A DNA stretch of 64,000 nucleotides from an uncultured Solirubrobacterales bacterium (GTDB lineage Bacteria > Actinomycetota > Thermoleophilia > Solirubrobacterales > JBBDJG01). Each line of letters begins with the position of its first letter. Position 1 is the stretch's first letter. The notes under the pieces were generated by a model that had not been told where the DNA came from, made no database searches, and saw only the letters and a program-made list of their open reading frames with translations. The stretch is taken from NCBI GenBank assembly GCA_963816975.1, contig CAWFMD010000006.1:1595008-1659007 (forward strand), read 5' to 3'. Made by a program: the position numbers and the translations under genes. Below are positions 7,642 to 21,858 of the stretch, piece after piece.

Positions 7642-9054
7642 ATGCCCGTCTCCACCAAGGTCACAGAGCTCCCCGACTCGCGCGTGCGCCTCGATGCCGA
7701 GGTGCCGAGCGAGGAGATCGAGTCGCGCGTCCAACGCACGGCGACGCAGCTCGGGCGCGACCTGCGCATACCGGGATTTCGCAAGGGCAAGGTCCCGGCG
7801 CCGATGGTGATCCAGCGGATCGGGCGCGAGGCCGTGCTCGAGCAGGCGGTGCGCGACTCGCTGCCCGAGTGGTACGAGGAGGCGATCGTGCGCTCCGGCC
7901 TGTCGACGGTGGGCGACCCGAAGCTCGACCTGGACGACCTGCCTGTGTCGGGCGAGCCGCTGAGCTTCACGATCGAGGTCGGTGTGACGCCGAAGGCGAC
8001 GCTCGGCGACTACCGGGAGCTGGAGGTCGGGAAGCGCTCCCCCGAGGTGCCCGACGAGGCGATCCAGGCCGAGCTCGACCGGCTGCGCGAGTCCTTCGCG
8101 CGCCTCGAGAGCGTCGACCGGGCCGCCCAGCAGGGCGACCACGTCGTGATCGACTTCACCGGTCGCGTCGACGGGGAGCTGTTCAAGGGCGGCGAGGCGC
8201 GCGACTACATGCTCGAGCTGGGTGGAAACAGACTGGTCGAGGGCTTCGAGGAGCAGGTGATCGGCGCACGCGCCGGCGAGGAGCGGACCGTCGAGGTCCA
8301 GTTCCCCGACAGCTACCACTCCGAGGAGCTCCAGGGCCGCAGCGCGATGTTCGACGTGCAGGTCAAGGACGTGAAGCAGAAGCAGCTACCCGAGCTCGAC
8401 GACGATTTCAGCTCGGAGGCGAGCGAGTTCGACACGCTCGCCGAGTTGCGTGCCGACATCCACCACAAGCTCGAGCACGCGCAGGAGCATGCGATCGAAG
8501 ACGAATTTCGTCAGGAGGCCGTCGACGCGGCGGTGGCGGAGGCCGAGATCGATCTGCCCGAGGATCTCGTGACCGCGCGCGCGGAAGAGATGTGGGAGCG
8601 CACCGAGCGCGTGCTGCGCGCGCAGGGGGTCGAGCCGGAGTCGTACCTGAACGCGTCCGGGCGCACCCGCGAGCAGATGGTCGAGGAGGCGAAGGAAGAC
8701 GCGCGCCGCACCCTGTCACGCGAGAGCGTCCTGGAGGCGGTCGCGGAGGCCGAGGGCATCGAGGTCTCCGACGACGACCTGCTGGAGGCGCTGCAGCCCA
8801 CGGCCGAGCGGGAGGGCACCACGCCCGACAAGCTGCTCGCGCAGCTCAAGGACGCCGGCCGCGACGCTCCCGTCCGGCGCGAGCTGCGCCTGCGGCGCGC
8901 GGTCGACGCGATCGCCGACAGCGCGCGACCGATCGAGCCCGGTACGGCGCAGGCGCGGGACGCGCTGTGGACTCCCAAGAAGCAGGCCAAGGAGGAGGGG
9001 TCCCAGCAACTCTGGACCCCCGGCGCCGGTGACCCTCCCGGTCCCCAAGACTGA
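7642..9054 (+). CDS. tig: Trigger factor
   Basis: IPGFRKGKVP signature, FKBP domain (GDHVVIDFTG), position upstream of clpP-clpX. Confidence 0.97.
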   Translation: MPVSTKVTELPDSRVRLDAEVPSEEIESRVQRTATQLGRDLRIPGFRKGKVPAPMVIQRIGREAVLEQAVRDSLPEWYEEAIVRSGLSTVGDPKLDLDDLPVSGEPLSFTIEVGVTPKATLGDYRELEVGKRSPEVPDEAIQAELDRLRESFARLESVDRAAQQGDHVVIDFTGRVDGELFKGGEARDYMLELGGNRLVEGFEEQVIGARAGEERTVEVQFPDSYHSEELQGRSAMFDVQVKDVKQKQLPELDDDFSSEASEFDTLAELRADIHHKLEHAQEHAIEDEFRQEAVDAAVAEAEIDLPEDLVTARAEEMWERTERVLRAQGVEPESYLNASGRTREQMVEEAKEDARRTLSRESVLEAVAEAEGIEVSDDDLLEALQPTAEREGTTPDKLLAQLKDAGRDAPVRRELRLRRAVDAIADSARPIEPGTAQARDALWTPKKQAKEEGSQQLWTPGAGDPPGPQD

Positions 9055-9186
9055 CTCCCGCGTTGCGCGGGCAGGATCGCGCGTGCGCCCGGGGAAGCTA
9101 TCGGGCGTGACGCGACCGCTCGGAACTTCGTCCATGAGGTGCCTCCGGTGCTCGGAGAACCCTCCAGGACGCGGAATTCCCGTTGC

Positions 9187-9192
9187 TAGAAT
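9187..9192 (+). promoter_or_regulatory. Probable -10 element (TAGAAT) for clpP-clpX
   Basis: TAGAAT in the tig-clpP intergenic region, about 80 nt before the clpP ATG. Confidence 0.45.
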
Positions 9193-9270
9193 CGCCGCGC
9201 GACGGCGGGATTCGGACGTATTCGAACACAAGGCATTCAACGTCCAGGCGCTAGGCGCCGGAAAGGCAAT

Positions 9271-9855
9271 ATGAGCCCACTGGTTCCAATGGTCGTCGAG
9301 CAGACCTCCCGCGGGGAGCGCGCCTTCGACATCTATTCCCGCCTCCTGAACGAGCGGATCGTGTTCCTCGGGACGCCGGTCACGGAGGACATCGCGAACC
9401 TGATCGTGGCCCAGCTGCTGCACCTCGAGTCCGAGGACCCGGACAAGGACATCAGCCTCTACGTCAACTCCCCCGGCGGAAGCGTGTACGCGGGCCTCGC
9501 GATCTACGACACGATGCAGTTCATCAAGCCGGACGTCCAGACGATCTGCGTGGGCGTCGCGATGAGCATGGGGGCGCTGCTGCTGGCGGGCGGGGCCGAC
9601 GGCAAGCGCATGGCGCTGCCCAACGCGAAGATCCTGATCCACCAGGTGTCGGGGGGCTTCTCGGGCCAGGCCGCCGACATCGAGATCCACGCCCGCGAGA
9701 TCATCGACATCCGGCGCAAGCTGGACGAGATCATCGCGAAGCACACGAAGCAGCCGCTCGAGAAGGTCTCGCACGACACCGACAGGGACTACTTCATGAG
9801 CGCCGAGGAGGCCCAGGAGTACAACATCATCGACAGGGTCATCAGCGAGCACTAG
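9271..9855 (+). CDS. clpP: ATP-dependent Clp protease proteolytic subunit
   Basis: [19 protein letters not shown], catalytic Ser in [20 protein letters not shown]. Confidence 0.98.
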
Positions 9856-9925
9856 GGCGCGACTTATCGCCCCGCAGCCCCTACTCTGTAAAGGCGTCTG
9901 AGGGGGCGCGGGGGGAGAGACGACT

Positions 9926-11242
<1,317 letters not shown>

Positions 11243-11245
11243 ACC

Positions 11246-11794
11246 GTGGCCTCACGGACGGCGGCCTTGGCGGTCGCGGTCCTCGGGGCGCTGGTGTCAT
11301 CCGGGTGCGGCGCGGGCGGCGACGAGGTGGCCGTACCGCATGCCGAGTTCGTGCGCGGCTGCTCCGAGCGCGTCGACGGCGAGCTTGCTCCGGGCTGGGA
11401 GCGGGAGAGCGTGGTGGCCGGGGCGCTCGCGTTTGCGTACGCGCGGCTGCTGGCCGGCGACGACCGCCGCCGCCCTGGCCGGCTCTGGGCGGTGAAGGTG
11501 CTGGCCGTGGTCGAGCCCGGCGAGAGCGTGACGGTCGTGGTGCCGCCGCGGGAGCGCTCCGAGGTAGCGCTGATCTACGACCCCGAGGTATGGGGAAGAT
11601 GGTCGGCGACGCGCACGCCTCGCCTGTCCGACGGACACGACTCGGTGCGCCTGGTGGCCTGTCGCGACGAGCAGCCGCACACGCAGTTCAACGGGGGCTT
11701 CATCGTGCGCTGGCCGCACTGTGCGCGGCTGGAGGTCTACAGCGGCGGCGTGCGCCACGCGGCGGCGATCCCCTTGGGGGAGCCGTGCCGTTAG
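11246..11794 (+). CDS. Hypothetical secreted protein, possible lipoprotein
   Basis: Signal-like N-terminus ending LVSSGC (non-canonical lipobox) and coding-like codon use. Confidence 0.6.
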   Translation: MASRTAALAVAVLGALVSSGCGAGGDEVAVPHAEFVRGCSERVDGELAPGWERESVVAGALAFAYARLLAGDDRRRPGRLWAVKVLAVVEPGESVTVVVPPRERSEVALIYDPEVWGRWSATRTPRLSDGHDSVRLVACRDEQPHTQFNGGFIVRWPHCARLEVYSGGVRHAAAIPLGEPCR

Positions 11795-12718
11795 CCCAGG
11801 TGCCGGCGCAGCACTGCGGCGATGCGCTGCGGTTCGTCGCGGACCTGCCGCCACGTGATCCGGATCACGCGCCAGCCCCGCTCCTGTAGGTAGAGGTCGC
11901 GGTCGCGATCACGGTGGAAGGCGATCGCGTGGCCATGCGTGGCGCGGCCGTCCGTTTCCACGACGAGCCTGTGCGCGGGCCAGTGGAAGTCGACCTGGAG
12001 CATGCCGACGTGGCCGTTCACGACGGGAAACGGCAGGCGGGCGCGGCGGATCAGGTCGAGCATCAGGCGCTCGAGCTCGCTCGCCGCCGTCGGGGGCTCG
12101 CCGGGCAAATCGGAAAGCAGACGGCGGAGCCTGCGCAGGCCGCGTTTGCCCTTCGCCGGTCTCGAGCGCCGCGAGTACCACGTCGAGGTCGAAGATCCGC
12201 AGCTCGAAGGTCCGTTCGAGCGCGCGGCGCAGCCGCCGCTCGCTCACGATGCCTGCCAGGTCGACCAGGGCCCGGGCCCACGTCGTGCAGGGGATGTTGT
12301 CCACGAGCGTCCGTTCCGATTCCGGCAGGGACCGCGTGACGTGCACGGCGATGCCGCGGTGTCGCCGTCCGCCGCCGCGGACCACGGTCACGTCGATCGG
12401 GCCGGAAGGGATCGGGCACAGGCCGATCCGCGCACCCGCCGCGCGGTGGCTGAGCCATGCGCCGTCACAGACCGCGAGCACCGCCGCCATGTCACGAGCA
12501 CCGGGAAGCAGCGCGGTGTGTCCCACGGCATAGACGCCGCGATGGAGCGGATGCAGGTGGCCGAGGTGAAGGCGGCGCTTGATCGTGTCCGAGGTGTGCC
12601 CGATCGCAAGCAATTGCGCCCGGCTGATCACCCCGTGCTGGCGGGCTGCCACCTCCGACACCGCCACCTCCGCGAGTGCGCGGTTTGGGGTGTCTATACG
12701 ACCCACAAAGTGTCGCAC
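11791..12718 (-). CDS. AbiEi-like N-terminal domain / DUF559 (very-short-patch endonuclease-like) protein, one frameshift near 12160
   Basis: One frame carries AARQHGVISRAQL...LHRGVYAVGH. The other carries SELER...VDFHWP..LVVETDG..H....FHRDRDRD..LQERGWRVIRITW. The join occurs at about 12160; start uncertain. Confidence 0.8.
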
Positions 12719-12757
12719 CCGGAGAGGGTGGCGGGAGATGCGTTACGTGTGTGTGAA

Positions 12758-13384
12758 CTACGTCGCGGGGGTGTAGAGCGTGCGGATCCAGATCGTCGCG
12801 AGCGTCGCTACGACCGTGTCGACCGGCGTCGTCGGCAGCCGTCCGAGCGTCATCTGCAGGTAGCGCTCGTTCATCCAGACCAGCGCCGCGGCGGTCGGGG
12901 CGGCATCCATCGGCGCGATGCGCCCAGCCGCGATGTCGGCCTCGACGCGCGTCGCCGTCGCGACCACGAACCGCTGGACCAGGCCGTGGTACACGCGCTC
13001 CACCTCGGGGTCGTGGCCGGCCGCGTCCGCGATCGCGTGCAGCACCAGCCCGTGCTCCGCCCACACCTCCGCGACGCCGCGCAGCGACTCGCGGACGTCC
13101 ACGCGAGGGTCGTCGTTCCCGCCCTCCAGCCAGCGGTTCGCCACCTCGAACAGCGCCTCCCCGATCCCCTCCACGAGGCGCACGGCGAGGTGGTGGCGGT
13201 CGCGGAAGTAGACGTAGAAGGAGGGGCGGGAGAGGGTCGTGCGCGCCATCACCTCGTCGACGGTGAGGTCCCAGAAGGGCCGCTCGCGCAGGAACGACTC
13301 CGCCGCGTCGAGGATCTCGCGCTCGGCGGACTCCGGCGACCGGCGGCGGCGCCGCGAGGAAGTTCCTGGTGCGCTTATTGACAC
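12758..13384 (-). CDS. TetR/AcrR family transcriptional regulator, divergent from the monooxygenase operon
   Basis: ILDAAESFL...LTVDEVMARTTLSRPSFYVYFRDR helix-turn-helix. Start uncertain (GTG 13384 chosen). Confidence 0.9.
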   Translation of the reverse strand: MSISAPGTSSRRRRRSPESAEREILDAAESFLRERPFWDLTVDEVMARTTLSRPSFYVYFRDRHHLAVRLVEGIGEALFEVANRWLEGGNDDPRVDVRESLRGVAEVWAEHGLVLHAIADAAGHDPEVERVYHGLVQRFVVATATRVEADIAAGRIAPMDAAPTAAALVWMNERYLQMTLGRLPTTPVDTVVATLATIWIRTLYTPAT

Positions 13385-13406
13385 GATGTCAGTAAGCCTA
13401 TATGGT
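13378..13406 (+). promoter_or_regulatory. Sigma70-type promoter with overlapping inverted-repeat operator
   Basis: TTGACA (13378-13383), 17 nt, TATGGT (13401-13406). TGACA-CGA-TGTCA palindrome at 13379-13391. Confidence 0.75.
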
Positions 13407-13506
13407 CGCCGCTCGAGGGGCAACCAGAATGCCCGCCGGACGTCGACCACCGGCTGCCCGCCAAGCGTCGACCAACTGCCGGCCAGTTGCCGGGAGGAGA
13501 GCCCAC

Positions 13507-15174
13507 ATGAGCGCCACCACGACCCGCCGCCGCAGCATCACCAAGACGCACGAGCGCATCTCGCAGCTCGGCTGGGAGCCCGACTACTTCCAGCCCGCGG
13601 ACAAGTACCCGTCGCGCTACACGTTCCCGACCAAGGCGAAGGACCCGATGAAGCACATCATGCGGGAGTACCTGCCGATGGAACTGGAGAAGGACGAGCG
13701 CGTGTACGGCGGGCACGACGCCGCGGTCCGCGCCGGGATGACGGGCAAGACCGGCCGGCGCTGGATGGAGATCATCAAGCCGTACATCGTCACGACCGCC
13801 TACGCCGAGGTCGGCGCCGGCCGCTGCATGTCGATGCTGATCGACGCGATTCCCAACAACGAGCTGCGCAACGGCTATCACGTGCAGTTCGTCGACGAGA
13901 TCCGGCACACGGGCCTCCAGATGGCGCTCGCCCGCTGGTACGCGAAGCACGTGCCCGACCCGTCCGGGTGGCACCTCGGACCGGCGACGCTCTCCAAGGA
14001 CCCGGGCGCGCGGCAGGCGCTCAACATGTTGTCGCATTTCATCGTGGGCGACCCGGTGCAGTGCGCCTTCACGCTGATGGTCGTCGCGGAGACGGCGTTC
14101 ACCAACATCGCGTTCGTGGCACTGCCCGACGTGGGCGCGCGCAACGGCGACTTCGCGCTGCCGACCACGTACCTCTCGGTGCAGTCGGACGAGGCGCGCC
14201 ACATCTCGAACGGCTACGCGACGCTCCTGACCGTCCTCCAGGAGGACGACAACGCGCCGCTGATCGAGCGCGACCTCGCGCAGGCATGGTGGATCAACCA
14301 CGCCTACCTCGACGGCTTCGGCTCCGCGATCATGGAGTACAGCTCCGATGACCGCTCCGACCCCGAGAGCTACCTCGACAAGTGGGAGCGCTGGATCGAG
14401 AACGACTGGTACCGCTCCTATGTGCTGAAGCTCGGCAAGCTCGGCCTGAACTTCCCGGCCGAGATGTTCGACCGCGCGAAGGCGCGGCTCGAGCGCGGAA
14501 TGGTCCACAAGAACATGCTCAGCGCGGCGGCGTTCTGGATGCTGCACTTCTGGCGCACCGAGCCGCTGAACGAGCGTGACTTCGAGTGGTTCGAGGCCAA
14601 GTACCCAGGCTGGTATGCGGAGTACGGCCCGGCGTGGGAGGCCTTCCGCCAGACGCGGCACGACCCGCAGCAATTCAAGCACCTGCTGCACATGGCGCTC
14701 GAGCAGGCCGCGCCATCGTGCTGGGTGTGCCTGATGGGCTGCGTGTTCCCCGACGACATGTGCCACCGCGCGGTCGGCGACCGCACGCGGTTCTACTGCT
14801 CGAAGGAGTGCATGTGGCTCGACGAGTCCAACCCGGGCCGCTACGTCGGCGACCGCAACTTCTTCGACCGCTACCACGGGTGGGAGCTGTCGGAGCTGGT
14901 GCGCGAGCTCGGCTTCGTGCGCACCGACGGCAAGACCCTGATCGCCCAGCCGCATCTCGGCAACGACAACATGTGGACGCTCGACGACGTGAAGAGCATG
15001 GACTTCCAAGTGCAGAGCCCCAACATCACCGTCGCCGAGCAGCTGGGGCTGCCGAACGGATCCTCGGCGGGGCTGGTGTCCCCGAACGGCCACCTCGACG
15101 GCGGGCTGAAGGCCGCGGCGCCCTGGTCGAACGGGGCCGCGAACGGCAAGCCGGTGACCAGCACGCCGACGTGA
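13507..15174 (+). CDS. Soluble di-iron monooxygenase hydroxylase alpha subunit (ThmA/DxmA-like, group 5 type)
   Basis: GGAGGAG RBS. Di-iron ligands E101, DEIRH (E131/H134), VAETAFTN (E195), SDEARH (E229/H232). DP.K.I...Y..M..EKD.RVYG and CS.EC..NPGRYVGDR..FDRYHGWE motifs resemble ThmA as recalled. Confidence 0.93.
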   Translation: MSATTTRRRSITKTHERISQLGWEPDYFQPADKYPSRYTFPTKAKDPMKHIMREYLPMELEKDERVYGGHDAAVRAGMTGKTGRRWMEIIKPYIVTTAYAEVGAGRCMSMLIDAIPNNELRNGYHVQFVDEIRHTGLQMALARWYAKHVPDPSGWHLGPATLSKDPGARQALNMLSHFIVGDPVQCAFTLMVVAETAFTNIAFVALPDVGARNGDFALPTTYLSVQSDEARHISNGYATLLTVLQEDDNAPLIERDLAQAWWINHAYLDGFGSAIMEYSSDDRSDPESYLDKWERWIENDWYRSYVLKLGKLGLNFPAEMFDRAKARLERGMVHKNMLSAAAFWMLHFWRTEPLNERDFEWFEAKYPGWYAEYGPAWEAFRQTRHDPQQFKHLLHMALEQAAPSCWVCLMGCVFPDDMCHRAVGDRTRFYCSKECMWLDESNPGRYVGDRNFFDRYHGWELSELVRELGFVRTDGKTLIAQPHLGNDNMWTLDDVKSMDFQVQSPNITVAEQLGLPNGSSAGLVSPNGHLDGGLKAAAPWSNGAANGKPVTSTPT

Positions 15175-16193
15175 GTCCACGGGTCGTCTTCGAGCCGATC
15201 GGCGAGGAGATCGACTGCGACGAGGAGGAGTCCGTCCTCGACGCCGCGTTCCGGCACGGCTACAACCTCGTCTATGGCTGCCGGGAGGGCCAGTGCTCGG
15301 CCTGCAAGGCATACCTGCTGGAGGGCGAGGTGGTGCTGAAGCCCTATTCCACCTTCGCCCTGGCGGAGTCCGAGGAGGCAAGCGGCTACACGCTGCTGTG
15401 CCGCGCGATGCCCGAGGAGGACCTGGTCGTCGAGCTGCTGCACTTCGACCCGGACAACTACAAGCTCGCGCACGAGATCCGCGACGGGCGCGGCACCGTG
15501 ACGGCCGTCGAGGCGCTCACGCGCGACATCCGGCGGCTGGAGCTGGAGGTGGCCGAGCCGGCCGATTTCTCGTTTCTCCCCGGCCAGTACGTGGACGTGT
15601 GGGTGCCCGGGGCAGACGGCGCCCGCCGCTCCTTCTCGATGGCGAACTTGCCCGGCGACGGGCGCATCGAGCTGATCGTCAAGCACTATCCGGGCGGCCG
15701 GTTCTCGAGCCTGCTCGAAGGAACGCTGGCGCCCGGCGACGAGCTGCGCTTCACCGGCCCCTACGGCGCCTTCCACCTGCGCAGCAGCAAGCGCCCGGTG
15801 CTGATGGTGGCGGGCGGCTCGGGCATGGCGCCGGTCCTGTCGCTGCTGCGGACGCTGGCGGCCGAGGGCAGCGAGCGCATGGTCCGCTTCTTCTACGGCG
15901 CGCGCACCGAGGAGGACCTGTTCTACGTCGACCTGATCGGCGAGCTCGGCGCGGGGCTGCGCGACTTCGACTTCCGCCCCGTGCTCTCCGACACCGACGG
16001 CTTCGTGCACGAGGCGGCGGGCGAGCTGCTCGAGTCGGGCGCCATGGACGACCCCGAGATCTACATGTGCGGGCCGCCCCCGATGATCGATGCGATGATC
16101 GAGCTGGCAACGCAGCGCCACGGCATCGACGAGGCCGGCAGGATCTTCCACGATAAATTCACGACGTCAGCCGATGCGGTGGCTGCCGGATAA
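15171..16193 (+). CDS. Monooxygenase reductase subunit (2Fe-2S / FAD / NAD domains)
   Basis: CREGQCSAC...C ferredoxin, RRSFSMAN, GGRFS, GPYG, AGGSGMAP, YMCGPPPM. GTGA coupling to alpha. Confidence 0.95.
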   Translation: MSPRVVFEPIGEEIDCDEEESVLDAAFRHGYNLVYGCREGQCSACKAYLLEGEVVLKPYSTFALAESEEASGYTLLCRAMPEEDLVVELLHFDPDNYKLAHEIRDGRGTVTAVEALTRDIRRLELEVAEPADFSFLPGQYVDVWVPGADGARRSFSMANLPGDGRIELIVKHYPGGRFSSLLEGTLAPGDELRFTGPYGAFHLRSSKRPVLMVAGGSGMAPVLSLLRTLAAEGSERMVRFFYGARTEEDLFYVDLIGELGAGLRDFDFRPVLSDTDGFVHEAAGELLESGAMDDPEIYMCGPPPMIDAMIELATQRHGIDEAGRIFHDKFTTSADAVAAG

Positions 16194-16202
16194 GGAGGAG
16201 AG

Positions 16203-17294
16203 ATGTCCGCTGGCACAGGACCACCCGTGAAGCACGTCGGCGACGGCGCCCTGCGCCGCGGCGACGAGCCCGAGCGCTCGTTCCAGTGGTACACCCCGAA
16301 GAAGCGCAGGGCGTCGATCTACGAGGACGTGACCGTCGACTCGCAGCCCTCGGTGCACCGCCACATCCAGAGCGGGCGGGGATGGCCGCTCCACTTCGAG
16401 GATGGGCGCGGCCTGTGGTCGGACGACTCGACGCGGCTGCGCGCGGGCGACTGGTACGCCTTCCGCGATCCCGGCCAGATGTGGGAGCGGCCGTACTACC
16501 AGGCCGGCACCGCCTACGAGCAGCTGATCGAGGGTGCGGTCCGCACGGCCAAGCGCGAGCGGGCGCTCGACGACTTCACTCCCGAGTGGGTGGACTTCCT
16601 GCGCACGCACCTGCAGGTGCCGGCGTTCATCGAGCACGGCATCTGGCTCGCGCTGGCGAGCGCCGCGCGTGACACGCTGTCCGACACGGTCACGCACTGC
16701 GTGGCCCTGGAGGCGGCGATGAAGCAGCGCCAGGCCCAGGCCTGCCTGCTGTACGGCATGGACCTGGAGGAGCACTTCGGGGACTTCCCGGTCGAGCGTG
16801 CGCGCGAGAGCTTCCTCAACGACGCCGCCTGGCAGCCGGCGCGCAGCTACGTGGAGCGGCTGCGCGCGACGCCCGACTGGGCCGAGCGGGTGATCGCCGC
16901 GAACCTGTGCTTCGAGCCGGCCGTGGGCCTGCTCGTGCGGCGGGAGCTTTTCATGCGCTCCGTGCGCTTCAACGGCGACATCGTGACCCAGGCCGTCAGC
17001 CACGTGGCCCAGCTCGAGTGGGAGTGGGTGCAGGGCTGGACGACCGAGCTCGTGAAGTTCGTGCAGGAGGATCCCGAGCACGGTGCCGCGAACCGCGACG
17101 TGCTGGCGGACTGGCTCGCTGAGTGGATGCCGCTCGCCGATCAGGCGGCGCTCGCGCTGGCCCCCGTGTTCGGCGACCTGCCCGCCGGGATCTCGTTCGA
17201 CGACGCGCGCGCCAACGTGCGCGTCGACGTGGACCAGCTGTTCGGCGACTGCGGCCTGTCCGAGGCGGCCGCGCCGACCGGAGGTGCCACGTGA
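16203..17294 (+). CDS. Soluble di-iron monooxygenase hydroxylase beta subunit
   Basis: AAGGAGG RBS. YEDVTVDSQP, DWYAFRDP..MWERPYY, ferritin-like helical pattern lacking iron ligands. Confidence 0.92.
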   Translation: MSAGTGPPVKHVGDGALRRGDEPERSFQWYTPKKRRASIYEDVTVDSQPSVHRHIQSGRGWPLHFEDGRGLWSDDSTRLRAGDWYAFRDPGQMWERPYYQAGTAYEQLIEGAVRTAKRERALDDFTPEWVDFLRTHLQVPAFIEHGIWLALASAARDTLSDTVTHCVALEAAMKQRQAQACLLYGMDLEEHFGDFPVERARESFLNDAAWQPARSYVERLRATPDWAERVIAANLCFEPAVGLLVRRELFMRSVRFNGDIVTQAVSHVAQLEWEWVQGWTTELVKFVQEDPEHGAANRDVLADWLAEWMPLADQAALALAPVFGDLPAGISFDDARANVRVDVDQLFGDCGLSEAAAPTGGAT

Positions 17295-17599
17295 GCGGGC
17301 AAACGTACGACTACGTCGGGATCGTGATGGCGAAGAGCGAGGAGGGTGACGCCGTCGCGAACGTGCTGCGCGGGCACGAAGGGGTCGAGATCGTGGAGAA
17401 CCCGTCGTTCTGGGACGTGCGGGCGAAGGATCGCCTCGTGATCGATTTCGACGCGGTCAGCGAGGAGCTCGGCTTCGACGTCGACCCATATGCGATGCAG
17501 CACGAGATGTCCACCCATTATGGTCGGCTGGTCGTGACCGATGACGCGCTGATGCTGTTCTCGGATCCGGTCGAGGCGATGGAGTACCTGAGCAACTGA
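17291..17599 (+). CDS. Monooxygenase coupling/effector protein (MmoB/DmpM family, ThmC-like)
   Basis: YDYVGIVM...RAKDRLVIDFDAV.EELG...M(S)THYGR. 102 aa; GTGA coupling to beta; GGAGG RBS. Confidence 0.9.
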   Translation: MSGQTYDYVGIVMAKSEEGDAVANVLRGHEGVEIVENPSFWDVRAKDRLVIDFDAVSEELGFDVDPYAMQHEMSTHYGRLVVTDDALMLFSDPVEAMEYLSN

Positions 17600-17621
17600 G
17601 TGAGAGGAATAGGAGAGGCGG

Positions 17622-19629
17622 ATGAGTGAGCTGAACGAGGCCCGGCGCGCTGTGCTGCAGGCGGTGTGCAACACGGTCGTGCCGAGCATTCCCCACGACC
17701 CCGACCCGACCGGGCTGTGGGCGCGCAGCGCCACGGACATGGGTGCGGACCAGGGCATCGAGCAGGTCTTCGGCACGCTCCCGCAGGAGCAGTTCGCGGG
17801 GATGATGGAGCTGCTCGACGGCCTCGCGGCAGCAGGGCTTCACGCAGGTCTCGCAGCGCTCGCGCGAGCAGATCCTGCGCAACGTCGCGCTGGTCGGGCC
17901 CGAAGCCGCCGCCGGCATCTCGACGCTGGTGGGGCTGACGCTCTTCATCACCTATGGCGCACCCGACCCGGCGACCGGGCAGAACCCCAACTGGGCGGTG
18001 TTCGGCTATCCGGGACCGACCGCAGCGCCGCCCGCGCGGCCCAAGCCGATCGCGCCCGTCGCGCCCAGCGGCGACGAGCTCACGCTGGAGGCGGACGTGT
18101 GCATCGTCGGGTCGGGCGCGGGCGGCGGCGTGATCGCGGGCGAGCTCGCCAAGGCCGGCCTGAAGGTCTGCGTGGTGGAGGCCGCCGGCTACTTCAACGA
18201 GTCCGACTTCGACCAGCTCGAGCTGTCCGCATACGAGCGCATGTACTGGCGCGGCGGCCCGCAGCCGACCGCCGACTTCAACGTGACCGTGTACGCGGGG
18301 GTGGGGCTCGGCGGCGGCACGGTGATCAACTGGACCAACTGCCTGCGCACCCGTCCGTGGGTGCGGGAGCAGTGGGCGGGCGAGCACGGCCTCGAGGGCG
18401 TCGACGGCCCCGACTTCGACGGCCACCTGGACGCGATCTTCGAGCGGATCTCGGTGAACGACCGGTGCTCGGACCTGAACGGCCCGCACCAGCGCATGAA
18501 GGAGGGCGCGGACGGGCTGGGCTGGTCCTTCCGGACGATCCTGCGCAACACGGACGAGAGCTGCTACGACCCGGCCTCGGTCGCCTACATCGGCTTCGGC
18601 GACCAGTCGGGCTCGAAGCTCAGCACGCAGCGCACCTACCTGCAGGACGCGTTCGACGCGGGCGCCGACATCGTCGTGCGCTGCACCGTCGAGCGCGTGC
18701 TGGTCGAGCAAGGCCGCGCGGCGGGCGTGGAAGGGACATGGCTCGATCCCGAGACCGGCCGCTCCGCGCGGGTGACCGTGCGTGCGCCGCAGGTCGTGGT
18801 CGCGGCCGGCGTCGCTGGAGTCGCCCGCGCTGCTGCGCCGCTCGCAGATCGGCGGCCCGGCCGTCGGCAACTACCTGCGCATCCACCCGTGCACGGCGCT
18901 GTTCGGCATCTACGGTGAGGATCAGGAGGCGTGGTGGGGCGCGCCGCAGGCCGGGACTCGTGGACGAGTTCGCGGCGGTCGAGGACGGCTACGGGTTCCT
19001 CGTCGAGGCGACCCAGTACGCCCCCGCGCTGGTCGGCTCGGCGCTCCCCTTCACGGGCGCGCGCAGGCACAAGGAGATGATGGAGCAGGTGCGCTACGGC
19101 GCCACCTTCATCGGCCTGCTGCGCGAGCGCGGCCACGGCCGCGTGGACGTGGACGCAAACGGCCAGGCGGTGGTCTACTACGACCTCACCGACGAGCTTG
19201 ACATCCGCAACACCCACCGCGCGATCGACGCGCAGGCGCGCCTGCACGCGGCCGCGGGCGCGCGCGAGATCCAGCCGATGGCCGCCGGCGCCGCCGCGCT
19301 GGCGCGCGGGCGACGACCTCGACGAGTGCATCGCGCGCTGGCAGCGCGTGCCGCTGCGGGCGGGCGGCTTTCGCCTGTTCTGCGCCCACCAGATGGGCAC
19401 CTGCCGGATGGGCAAGGACCAGCAGACGAGCGTCGCCGACCCCTGGGGACAGCTGCACGACACGCCGGGCGTGTGGATCGGCGACGGCAGCGCGTTCCCG
19501 ACGGCCTCGGGCACGAATCCGATGATCTCGATCATGGCGCTCGCGCGGCGGACGGCCGGTGCGATCGCCTCCCAGCATTCGCCTGCGACGGGTCAGACGG
19601 CCCGCGAACCAGTCACCACGACCCGATAA
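17622..19629 (+). CDS. GMC oxidoreductase (long-chain alcohol oxidase-like), broken by four apparent frameshifts
   Basis: DVCIVGSGAGGG, GVGLGGGTVINW, VVVAAG, VGNYLRIHP, C-terminal AHQMGTCRMG and GDGSAFPTASGTNP. Frame changes near 17835, 18810, 18955 and 19295. Confidence 0.85.
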
Positions 19630-19638
19630 GGAGCACTC

Positions 19639-21076
19639 ATGGCCGTAGCCGCAGAACTTCAGGTACGCGACAAGCTCTTCATCGGAGGCGAGTGGGTCGA
19701 CCCGGCGGGGTCGGAGACGATCGACGTCGTGAACGCCGCCACCGAAGAGGTGATGGGCCGCATCCCGCAAGGCACGCCACAGGACGTCGACCGCGCGGTC
19801 GCGGCCGCGCGCGCGGCCTTCGAGTCGTGGTCCCAGGCGCCGCTCGAGGAGCGCGCGAACGTGGTCCGGGCGATCGCCGCCGGGCTGGCTGCGCGCAGCG
19901 ACGAGATCGCCGCGACGATCGCCCAGGAGCTGGGCATGCCGATCGGGCTGTCCAAGGCGATCCAGGCGGGCCTGCCGACGATGACGTTCACCTCCGTCCC
20001 CGACCTGGTCGAGGAGATCGTGTGGCAGGAGGAGATCGGCAACTCGCTGGTGGTCCGCGAGCCGATCGGCGTGGTGGGCGCGATCACTCCCTGGAACTAC
20101 CCGCTCCACCAGATCGCGGCCAAGGTCGCCCCGGCCCTGGCCGTGGGCTGCACGGTCGTGCTGAAGCCCAGTGAGGTTGCGCCCCTGAACGCGTTCATCC
20201 TCGCCGAGATCATCGCGGCGGCGGGCGCGCCCGCCGGAGTGTTCAACCTCGTCACGGGGACCGGCCCGGTGGTGGGCGAGGCGATCGCCTCCCACCCGGG
20301 GGTCGACATGGTGTCGTTCACCGGGTCCACGCGCGCCGGGCGGCGCGTCAGCGAGCTGGCCGCGCAGAGCGTGAAGCCCGTCGCCCTGGAGCTGGGCGGC
20401 AAGTCGCCGAACGTGATCCTCGACGACGCGGACCTCGAGACCGCGGTCACGGACGGCGTCTCGAAGTGCTTCCTCAACTCCGGCCAGACGTGCAGCGCGC
20501 TGACGCGCATGCTGGTGCCGCGCGAGCGGCTCGCCGAAGCGGAGCAGATCGCGGCGGCCGTGGCCGGCGCCTTCACCGTCGGCGACCCGTTCGGCGAGGA
20601 GACGAAGCTCGGCCCGCTGGTGTCCGACGTCCAGCGGGAGCGCGTGCGCGGCTACATCCGCAAGGGAGTGGACGAGGGCGCAAAGCTCGTCGCGGGCGGC
20701 GCGGAGGCGCCCGACGGTCTCGGCCGCGGCTACTTCGTGCGGCCGACCGTGTTCTCGGACGTGCGCAGCGACATGACGATCGCGCAGGAGGAGATCTTCG
20801 GTCCCGTGCTGTCGATCATCCCCTACGACGGCGAGGAGGACGCGGTCCGGATTGCGAACGACTCGAGCTACGGGCTGGCCGGCGGCGTGTGGTCGGCCGA
20901 CGAGGATCGCGCCAAGCGCGTCGCGCGCCGCATCAGGACCGGGCAGGTCGAGATCAACGGCGGGGTGTTCAACCCGCTGGCGCCGTTCGGCGGCTACAAG
21001 CAGTCGGGCCACGGCCGCGAGCTGGGGCGCTATGCCCTGGAGGAATATCCTCCAGGTGAAGTCCATGCAGCTCTGA
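19639..21076 (+). CDS. NAD-dependent aldehyde dehydrogenase (CddD-like subfamily), +1 base near 21050
   Basis: [27 protein letters not shown], catalytic Cys in [23 protein letters not shown]. The natural C-terminus [11 protein letters not shown] is in the adjacent frame. Confidence 0.92.
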
Positions 21077-21081
21077 GCCGC

Positions 21082-21858
21082 GTGCGGTTCGAGACGCTCG
21101 CGGCGGGTGGGTACGGCCTGCTGGAGGCCCCCTGCTGGGACGGGGACGGGGGCGTCTACTTCAGCGACGTGCTCCAGGGCGGCGTGCGCCGGTGGTCGGC
21201 GGGCGGCATCGAGGACGTGGTGCCCAAGCGGCGCGGGATCGGCGGGTTGTGCCGGCATGCGGACGGCGGATTGGTGATCAGCGGGCGCGACGTGCTGCGC
21301 GTGCACGGCGCCGAGCAGCGCGTGTTGCTGGGCGACGTGGAGGGCGTCACCGGATTCAACGACCTCGGCGTCGACCCGCAGGGGCGCGTGTACGTGGGGG
21401 CGCTGCGCTTCAAGCCGTTTGCGGGAGAGGAGCCCAAACCCGGTCAGGTGTGGAGGATCGACGCCGAGGGCGCAACGCCGGTGCTGGAGGGGATCGACTG
21501 GCCCAACGGGATCGGCTTCTCGCCCGACGGCGCCGAGATGTACGTGTGCGACTACGCCCATGGGACGGTGCGCGCGGGTGACGGCGGTACGTTCGCGCGG
21601 TCGCCGGCGGGGTCCGCGGACGGGCTGGCGGTGGACGAGACCGGTGGGGTATGGGTGGCGCTCGGCGAAGGCGGCGGCATCGCCCGGTTCGCGGCGGACG
21701 GCTCCCTCGACTCCCGCGTCGACGTGCCCGCCGATTTCGTGACGAGCCTGTGCTTCGGTGGCGACGACCTGCGCGACGTGTACGTCACGACCATGGGTGC
21801 ATTGCTGCGCGGCCGCTCCGACGTCGCCGGCCTCCCGGTTCCGGCCGCGACCGTTTAG
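21082..21858 (+). CDS. SMP-30/gluconolactonase/LRE family protein (lactonase)
   Basis: [58 protein letters not shown]. Confidence 0.9.

Follow-up and report, generated by a model that had tools for sequence, protein, structure and literature searches.

The Four-Gene Monooxygenase Operon

The window, a stretch of 64,000 nucleotides, belongs to the genome of an uncultured Solirubrobacterales bacterium (assembly GCA_963816975.1, contig CAWFMD010000006.1). At positions 13507–17599 it carries four genes, arranged alpha–reductase–beta–coupling, which encode the two hydroxylase subunits, the NADH oxidoreductase and the effector protein of a soluble diiron monooxygenase (SDIMO). Group-5 enzymes of this family are key to the breakdown of tetrahydrofuran, 1,4-dioxane, propane and related pollutants and are used as field biomarkers. 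The G+C content of the window is about 70% and most of its long open reading frames (ORFs) are spurious; a filter on third-position G+C combined with direct reading of the sequence identified the four genes (Table 1).

The four genes form a complete, conserved enzyme system, which is translationally coupled and retains all six metal ligands. A Shine–Dalgarno sequence (GGGAGGAG) precedes the alpha gene. The GTG start of the reductase gene shares a GTGA overlap with the alpha stop, the gap between the reductase and beta genes is 9 nt with AGGAGG before the beta start, and the beta/coupling junction is again a GTGA overlap. Pfam matches to all four subunits exceed the gathering cutoffs, so that a set of SDIMO components is encoded together. 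Alignment with MmoX (PDB 1fyz) pairs residues E101, E131, H134, E195, E229 and H232 of the alpha subunit with MmoX E114, E144, H147, E209, E243 and H246. These ligands, arranged in two E...EXXH motifs, are invariant across 16 members of the clade to which the window alpha belongs. Each subunit gives one unbroken high-scoring segment pair against the orthologues of close relatives; hence no frameshifts are hidden in the monooxygenase genes. In NCBIfam no model matched the alpha subunit, and the other three subunits produced only sub-threshold equivalog matches (for the coupling protein against MimD, 87 bits, below the 150-bit cutoff).

No genes for a gamma subunit, MmoD, a Rieske ferredoxin or GroEL adjoin the operon. 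Queries with the group-3 gamma subunit and with the DUF59 protein of propane monooxygenase (Prm) operons gave no match in the whole genome, and groEL is present in the assembly as one copy, about 750 kb distant. In this assembly (2.95 Mb, 6 contigs, 93% complete) the operon encodes the single SDIMO. Its surroundings showed neither a transposase nor an integrase. Among annotated plasmids, the best match is to the thm cluster that Rhodococcus ruber YYL carries on pYYL1.1. A plasmid or phage origin was considered and rejected, since alpha identity in plasmid records is 51% at most and genes of mobile elements were not observed. A preceding sequence-only reading had described four intact, linked genes in this order, all six diiron ligands, and flanks free of gamma, MmoD, Rieske, dedicated GroEL and mobile genes; ORF reading with Pfam, the MmoX alignment, and inspection of the flanks together with the genome-wide gamma query bear out this description.

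Table 1. Coordinates of the features of the window and of two related loci.
Sequence	Feature	Position	Strand	Remarks
Window	DUF559/restriction-endonuclease-like small gene	11791..12108	-	Pfam DUF559 6.5e-9; clpX-side edge of inserted block
Window	TetR-family regulator, EthR_C-type ligand domain	12758..13450	-	Divergent; Pfam TetR_N 2.5e-7, EthR_C 3.9e-17
Window	Candidate promoter TTGACA-N17-TATGGT	13378..13406	+	Between TetR gene and alpha; read directly from sequence
Window	Alpha hydroxylase subunit	13507..15174	+	555 aa; diiron centre, C-terminal Cys4 motif; Pfam Phenol_Hydrox 1.2e-46
Window	NADH oxidoreductase (reductase)	15171..16193	+	340 aa; Pfam Fer2 ([2Fe-2S] ferredoxin), FAD_binding_6, NAD_binding_1
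Window	Hydroxylase beta subunit	16203..17294	+	363 aa; Pfam Phenol_Hydrox 1.7e-46
Window	Coupling/effector protein	17291..17599	+	102 aa; Pfam MmoB_DmpM 1.8e-18
Window	GMC-family flavoprotein oxidoreductase	17622..19629	+	Pfam GMC_oxred_N; ~665 aa in relatives; here five frame segments
Window	NAD(P)-dependent aldehyde dehydrogenase	19639..21076	+	Pfam Aldedh 1e-162; native stop 21074-21076
Window	SMP-30/gluconolactonase-like protein	21082..21858	+	Pfam SGL 3e-44
L053	PucR-family regulator	8741-9919	-	Divergent from cassette
L053	SCP2 sterol-carrier-like gene	14097-14522	+	Directly after coupling protein
L113	PucR-family regulator	8617-9861	-	Divergent from cassette
L113	SCP2 sterol-carrier-like gene	14329-14760	+	Directly after coupling protein

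Position among Soluble Diiron Monooxygenases

All four subunits are closer to the tetrahydrofuran/1,4-dioxane monooxygenase (Thm) than to Prm, the Prm set comprising only plasmid copies from Rhodococcus, Methylocella and Caballeronia; the chromosomal references Prm1A/Prm2A of Pseudonocardia sp. TY-7, PrmA of Gordonia TY-5 and MimA lie outside this set. Identity to Thm and Prm, respectively, is 51% and 41% for the alpha subunit, 55% and 44–46% for the reductase, 41% and 32–34% for the beta subunit, and 53% and 28–35% for the coupling protein. Group 6 proteins reach about 40% (alpha), 38% (reductase) and 32–34% (beta). With SmoX, the group-3 alpha subunit of Rhodococcus sp. ZPP, the window alpha shares 34% identity.

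A maximum likelihood tree of the alpha subunit (LG+C20; 54, then 58 sequences) unites ThmA, PrmA and the window in a group 5 clade that leaves out groups 3, 4 and 6 (support 100/98, and 100/100 in the larger tree). Two clades make up group 5, one of Prm sequences (100/100) and one on the Thm side (100/96). Within the latter, ThmA (cluster P0149, which includes Pseudonocardia sp. N23 and D17 and R. ruber) and six environmental sequences (P0150–P0155), which are 56–62% identical to ThmA and labelled Conexibacter or Solirubrobacteraceae, constitute a clade supported by 100/100, with the window outside. The window alpha falls into the other Thm-side branch, which comprises 39 sampled sequences (98/93) and consists almost entirely of Solirubrobacterales. 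Since the set nearest to ThmA is also labelled Solirubrobacterales, ThmA appears nested between two Solirubrobacterales groups.

Gene order and alpha phylogeny thus agree in assigning the locus to group 5, as the sequence-only reading had proposed. Its view that the alpha and coupling proteins are nearer to Thm than to Prm and yet diverged extends to all four subunits (41–55% identity to Thm). The alpha subunit neither nests within Prm nor is near-identical to ThmA. The suggested uncharacterised sister clade is recovered as a large separate branch; the tree places it clearly outside the Prm clade and as sister to ThmA plus its nearest environmental relatives, a smaller Solirubrobacterales set, and not as the nearest neighbour of ThmA itself.

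Residues of the substrate pocket were predicted by mapping from MmoX positions L110, E111, G113, F188, G208, L216, I217 and F236. In this order the window has T, A, A, L, A, A, F and Y, ThmA has V, V, A, T, V, I, L and M, and Prm has I, P, P, G/A, A, L, F and F. As mapped, the pocket of the window matches neither ThmA nor Prm.

Judged from these comparisons, the locus should encode a working four-component group-5 SDIMO of an uncultured Solirubrobacterales soil bacterium, and this enzyme would belong to a large uncharacterised clade beside ThmA/DxmA. The probability of this interpretation is estimated at roughly 0.8.

Occurrence in Solirubrobacterales and Transcription

In a scan of 185,579 species genomes (one per species), up to 194 carry a Thm-side alpha subunit, canonical ThmA-type proteins included. 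Each of the best 80 of the 194 matching genomes (65–94% identity) is labelled either as Solirubrobacterales or one of its families, Thermoleophilaceae among the labels, or as unclassified Actinomycetota/Actinomycetes; Conexibacter sp. DBS9H8 is represented among them by a complete genome. Of 401 genomes sampled evenly across the class, 8 have the clade type, 4 the Prm type and 2 both. The closest proteins (60–92% identical) bear the labels Solirubrobacterales, Solirubrobacteraceae, Thermoleophilaceae, Baekduia, Paraconexibacter and Conexibacter. Genomes of the same genus as the source organism are labelled Solirubrobacterales, which bears out its earlier attribution to Thermoleophilia and gives the order. 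A few stray bins excepted, the Thm side as a whole carries Solirubrobacterales labels. Conexibacter sp. DBS9H8, Conexibacter sp. SYSU D00693 and Paraconexibacter spp. (P. algicola and strain AEG42_29) are cultured carriers of the clade; therefore, the question of the substrate is directly testable.

A true Prm-type alpha subunit (about 42% identical to the window and grouping with Rhodococcus PrmA) is also found in some Solirubrobacterales (loci L012–L015 of genomes G125, G393, G005 and G017). Two of these genomes, G005 and G017, carry both the Prm type and the window-clade type.

Prm-like operons have been noted in Thermoleophilia metagenome-assembled genomes (MAGs) (PMC7901476, PMC13603553). 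The 2026 prmABCD survey of MAGs reports the motifs DEVRH/DESRH in Actinomycetota operons, those of Solirubrobacterales included (PMC13603553); by these motifs, the survey saw the true Prm type and not the window clade. The literature search on the window clade returned nothing specific, and no paper treating it separately was found. To this extent the description of the clade as an unrecognised reservoir stands. It is qualified by the two papers just cited and by public records: the closest named proteins are called propane (2-)monooxygenase or methane monooxygenase in JGI, NCBI and UniRef.

Metatranscriptome contigs from soil and ice are 93–96% identical to the alpha gene (over window positions 13272–15407). 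The summed contig depth is 42–595 in most bins of alpha and only 1–13 in beta, coupling and GMC genes. The deeper coverage is probably due to alpha being the one gene with sufficient conservation for sequences of relatives to map. These assembled contigs of relatives are supportive of transcription of close relatives of the operon in soils.

A broader proposal can be put forward tentatively, at less than even odds. The Thm side of group 5 would be essentially a Solirubrobacterales family, from which the plasmid-borne ThmA/DxmA of Pseudonocardia and Rhodococcus might have been captured horizontally, and members of this abundant soil order could run transcribed hydrocarbon or ether oxidation in ordinary soils.

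Neighbouring Genes and Conservation of the Module

The operon lies between tig–clpP–clpX–hypothetical–DUF559–TetR on one side and GMC–aldehyde dehydrogenase–lactonase–valS–folC–ndk–mreB on the other. Its chromosomal placement between clpX and valS was already recognised from the sequence alone; that account omitted the six further genes of the interval (hypothetical, DUF559, TetR, GMC oxidoreductase, aldehyde dehydrogenase and lactonase) and the five frameshifts discussed below. The placement is common to at least five species-level genomes (L036, L037, L039, L043 and L045). The genes clpX and valS are immediate neighbours in three other families. In a sister genus (G407, locus L116) clpX is followed by the lactonase gene (15359–16152) and valS, with no monooxygenase between them. 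Given these direct clpX–valS or lactonase–valS arrangements in other lineages, the block at about 11.8–21.1 kb (roughly 9 kb) is a genus-level insertion into an otherwise conserved housekeeping junction. The DUF559 gene is kept at the same position in loci of the same genus and does not occur in the clpX–valS interval of other genera.

The TetR gene, whose true start is probably downstream of the longest-ORF start, adjoins alpha in all close relatives (L033, L036–L045). The palindrome TGACACGATGTCA (TGACA-CGA-TGTCA) covers the -35 box of the candidate promoter and may be the operator of TetR. The GMC enzyme lacks close relatives with a known function or structure (best PDB match 1.7e-22, over partial length) and thus gives no hint of the substrate. 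The lactonase gene is absent after the aldehyde dehydrogenase gene in L033, L040 and L042. Its presence beside valS in G407, where no monooxygenase intervenes, makes it an older valS neighbour and not a part of the module.

The arrangement TetR–alpha–reductase–beta–coupling–GMC–aldehyde dehydrogenase recurs in at least three genomic contexts, among relatives with 79–95% alpha identity (L031, L033–L035, L036–L045). Neighbours were counted at 81 loci, namely the 80 scanned and L033. A divergent PucR-type regulator is present in 49 of them, and an SCP2-like gene directly follows the coupling protein gene in 34 (two examples are given in Table 1). The conserved unit is therefore the four-gene cassette, with accessory genes that vary.

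Thiolase, short-chain dehydrogenase/reductase and MaoC genes, a 2-oxoacid dehydrogenase and lipB/lipA occur near loci of the PucR/SCP2 type. Two rearranged cassettes were also observed: reductase–beta–coupling–alpha in L076 (7500–11545), and a reductase gene divergent from alpha–beta–coupling in L030 (genome G071; 8315–12897).

Possible Mechanism and Substrates

The architecture and mechanism are those of the known group-5 SDIMO. By analogy with the family, the reductase would take electrons from NADH and relay them, by way of its FAD and then its [2Fe-2S] cluster, to the diiron centre. Once the effector protein is bound, this centre could activate O2 and hydroxylate a small or medium-sized hydrophobic substrate. 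In the lineage of the window, the alcohol or hemiacetal formed may then be oxidised to a carboxylate, first by the GMC flavoenzyme and next by the aldehyde dehydrogenase. Synthesis of the enzymes could be switched on by binding of an inducer to the TetR repressor, which would leave the palindromic operator over the promoter.

As a rough split, short or medium alkanes attacked by terminal oxidation are given about 35% as the substrate, ethers including cyclic ones 20–25%, and the rest falls to others (ketones, alkenes or something new). Alkanes are thus somewhat likelier than ethers.

The enzyme could be a monooxygenase of propane or other short-chain alkanes (or of acetone), with the GMC enzyme and the aldehyde dehydrogenase converting the primary alcohol to the acid. 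The names given to clade members in JGI, NCBI and UniRef (propane 2-monooxygenase or methane monooxygenase) agree with such a role; they are, however, homology transfers. A GMC enzyme that oxidises alcohols, with an aldehyde dehydrogenase after it, would suit terminal alkane oxidation, and genes for wax-ester synthase, an acyl-CoA ligase and patatin are located near the cassettes of L033–L035. The alpha subunit, on the other hand, falls outside the Prm clade, the coupling protein stays below the MimD cutoff, and the usual accessory set of Prm (amidohydrolase, DUF59 protein, alcohol dehydrogenase and GroEL) is absent. The predicted pocket also departs from that of Prm at the sites corresponding to MmoX L110, E111, G113, F188, L216 and F236. 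In this specific form the proposal is rather doubtful.

A cyclic-ether monooxygenase of the tetrahydrofuran/1,4-dioxane type, as the sequence-only reading suggested, is unlikely. According to this explanation, the GMC enzyme, the aldehyde dehydrogenase and the lactonase would complete ring opening from lactol through lactone and hydroxy acid to diacid. It is consistent with the closeness of every subunit to ThmADBC, with the place of alpha on the Thm side of group 5, and with two traits common to the window and ThmA, the DEARH motif and the absence of the insertion found in Prm. Aldehyde dehydrogenase genes flank thmADBC and also the cassette of a clade member in L024. Identity to ThmA is nevertheless just 51%, and a closer set of ThmA relatives exists to which the window does not belong. 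At MmoX positions 110, 111, 188, 208, 216, 217 and 236 the predicted residues of the window and ThmA differ as T/V, A/V, L/T, A/V, A/I, F/L and Y/M. The aldehyde dehydrogenase of the module is 42% identical to the thm-associated succinate-semialdehyde dehydrogenase ThmS and is only its fifth-best match in the genome; the best ThmS homologue (53%) is encoded on another contig. The lactonase was rejected as a member of a ring-opening pathway, since it stood beside valS before the module arrived, as in G407, and is missing from the module elsewhere. With the lactonase an older neighbour, the aldehyde dehydrogenase a distant ThmS match and the predicted pocket unlike both ThmA and PrmA, oxidation of cyclic ethers by this locus is an unsupported guess.

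Integrity of the GMC and Aldehyde Dehydrogenase Genes

Between 17820 and 21051 the sequence contains five single-base +1 shifts, of which four fall in the GMC gene and the fifth at the 3' terminus of the aldehyde dehydrogenase gene. A frame plot and three-frame translation put the GMC sites near 17820–17830, 18792–18812, 18952–18957 and 19280–19297. Compared with the intact orthologue of L037 (an Illumina MAG), the GMC gene is broken up into five pieces, which are read in frames 1, 2, 3, 1 and 2. A one-base insertion near 21049–21051 shifts the last 8 codons of the aldehyde dehydrogenase gene, removes its stop and fuses the ORF to that of the lactonase. The fused 739-aa ORF (19639–21858) was dismissed as an artefact of the insertion near 21050, because relatives have two genes 5 nt apart. 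The monooxygenase and valS genes, which flank the shifted region, are clean.

Low-coverage contigs assembled from short reads of four soil metagenomes of one study match the region with 0–3 mismatches per 150–380 nt piece. Two of the shift sites are covered by these contigs, and at both (17831/2 and 18810) a single base is missing from them; no further indel occurs across about 5 kb. Frame breaks at other, scattered positions are found in long-read MAGs of the same genus and in two closely related metagenome contigs (L039, L043, L031 and L032). The GMC and aldehyde dehydrogenase orthologues of L033, L036 and L037 are intact. A run-index search with the GMC stretch 17600–19700 as the sole DNA query returned no run with more than 19% of the sampled words.

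The five frameshifts are probably consensus errors. Decay of the operon in this strain, with real frameshifts and the monooxygenase left as a remnant deprived of its downstream pathway, could account for five +1 changes confined to one region between clean neighbours and is nevertheless very improbable, as the near-identical short-read contigs are free of the extra base at both covered sites and of other indels, the shifts all go in the same direction with almost no substitution divergence (unlike pseudogene decay), the scattered breaks of the related sequences are typical of consensus errors, and intact orthologues exist. In view of the short-read contigs, the intact orthologues and the scattered breaks, the GMC gene was judged unlikely to be a true pseudogene.

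Points against the Proposed Function and Significance

Several points weigh against the interpretation of the locus as a working group-5 enzyme of a large Solirubrobacterales clade. No biochemical data were found for any clade member in the literature searched. For proteins from MAGs, the assigned taxon depends on how the genomes were binned. The RNA evidence consists of assembled contigs of relatives and not of reads of the source organism. The GMC and aldehyde dehydrogenase genes are frameshifted here, and if these shifts were real, the downstream pathway would be broken in the strain. Most of the clade (65–70% alpha identity) has other neighbours and neither a GMC nor an aldehyde dehydrogenase gene; consequently, the downstream pathway is not a trait of the whole clade.

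The locus represents a large branch with no characterised member, which is labelled propane monooxygenase although it is placed as sister to the tetrahydrofuran/dioxane enzymes. Knowledge of the substrate would correct the database annotations of this branch and would tell whether biomarker assays for prmA/thmA miss or miscount it. It could also reveal the origin of the plasmid-borne dioxane enzymes. The tetrahydrofuran/dioxane enzymes may derive from this Solirubrobacterales radiation.

Comparison with Known Systems

The closest characterised relative of every window subunit is ThmADBC/DxmADBC of Pseudonocardia spp. and R. ruber YYL (pYYL1.1). This system has the same components in the same alpha–reductase–beta–coupling order and is likewise devoid of a gamma subunit and a linked GroEL. 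Two shared derived features set the window and ThmA apart from Prm: the second iron motif is DEARH, and the Cys4 region is free of a 12-aa insertion. As first motif the window has DEIRH and ThmA has DEQRH, and seven predicted pocket positions differ. The window locus is chromosomal and lies in a housekeeping region, whereas the thm cluster is borne by plasmids and transposons. The window has TetR and GMC oxidoreductase genes beside the operon; the thm cluster has thmS (succinate-semialdehyde dehydrogenase) upstream and thmH downstream.

The propane, acetone and phenol monooxygenases PrmABCD/MimABCD of Gordonia, Rhodococcus, Mycolicibacterium and Methylocella also belong to group 5 and have the same gene order and components. 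Prm contains a DESRH motif and the 12-aa insertion in its C-terminal Cys4 region, neither of which is present in the window. The Prm operons continue with genes for an amidohydrolase, a DUF59 protein, an alcohol dehydrogenase and GroEL, and none of this set occurs at the window locus.

Group 6 enzymes (propane monooxygenase of Mycobacterium dioxanotrophicus PH-06 and SmoABCD of M. chubuense NBB4) resemble the window system in having four components and DEARH as the second motif. They constitute a separate clade, and their order alpha–beta–coupling–reductase, with GroEL downstream, differs from that of the window, as does the gene order of the group 4 references. Soluble methane monooxygenase (MmoXYBZDC) shares the fold family and the six ligands and is the only close relative with solved structures, its sequence being just distantly related to the window alpha (phmmer E ~1e-76); it differs from the window in gene order and in possessing gamma and MmoD genes.

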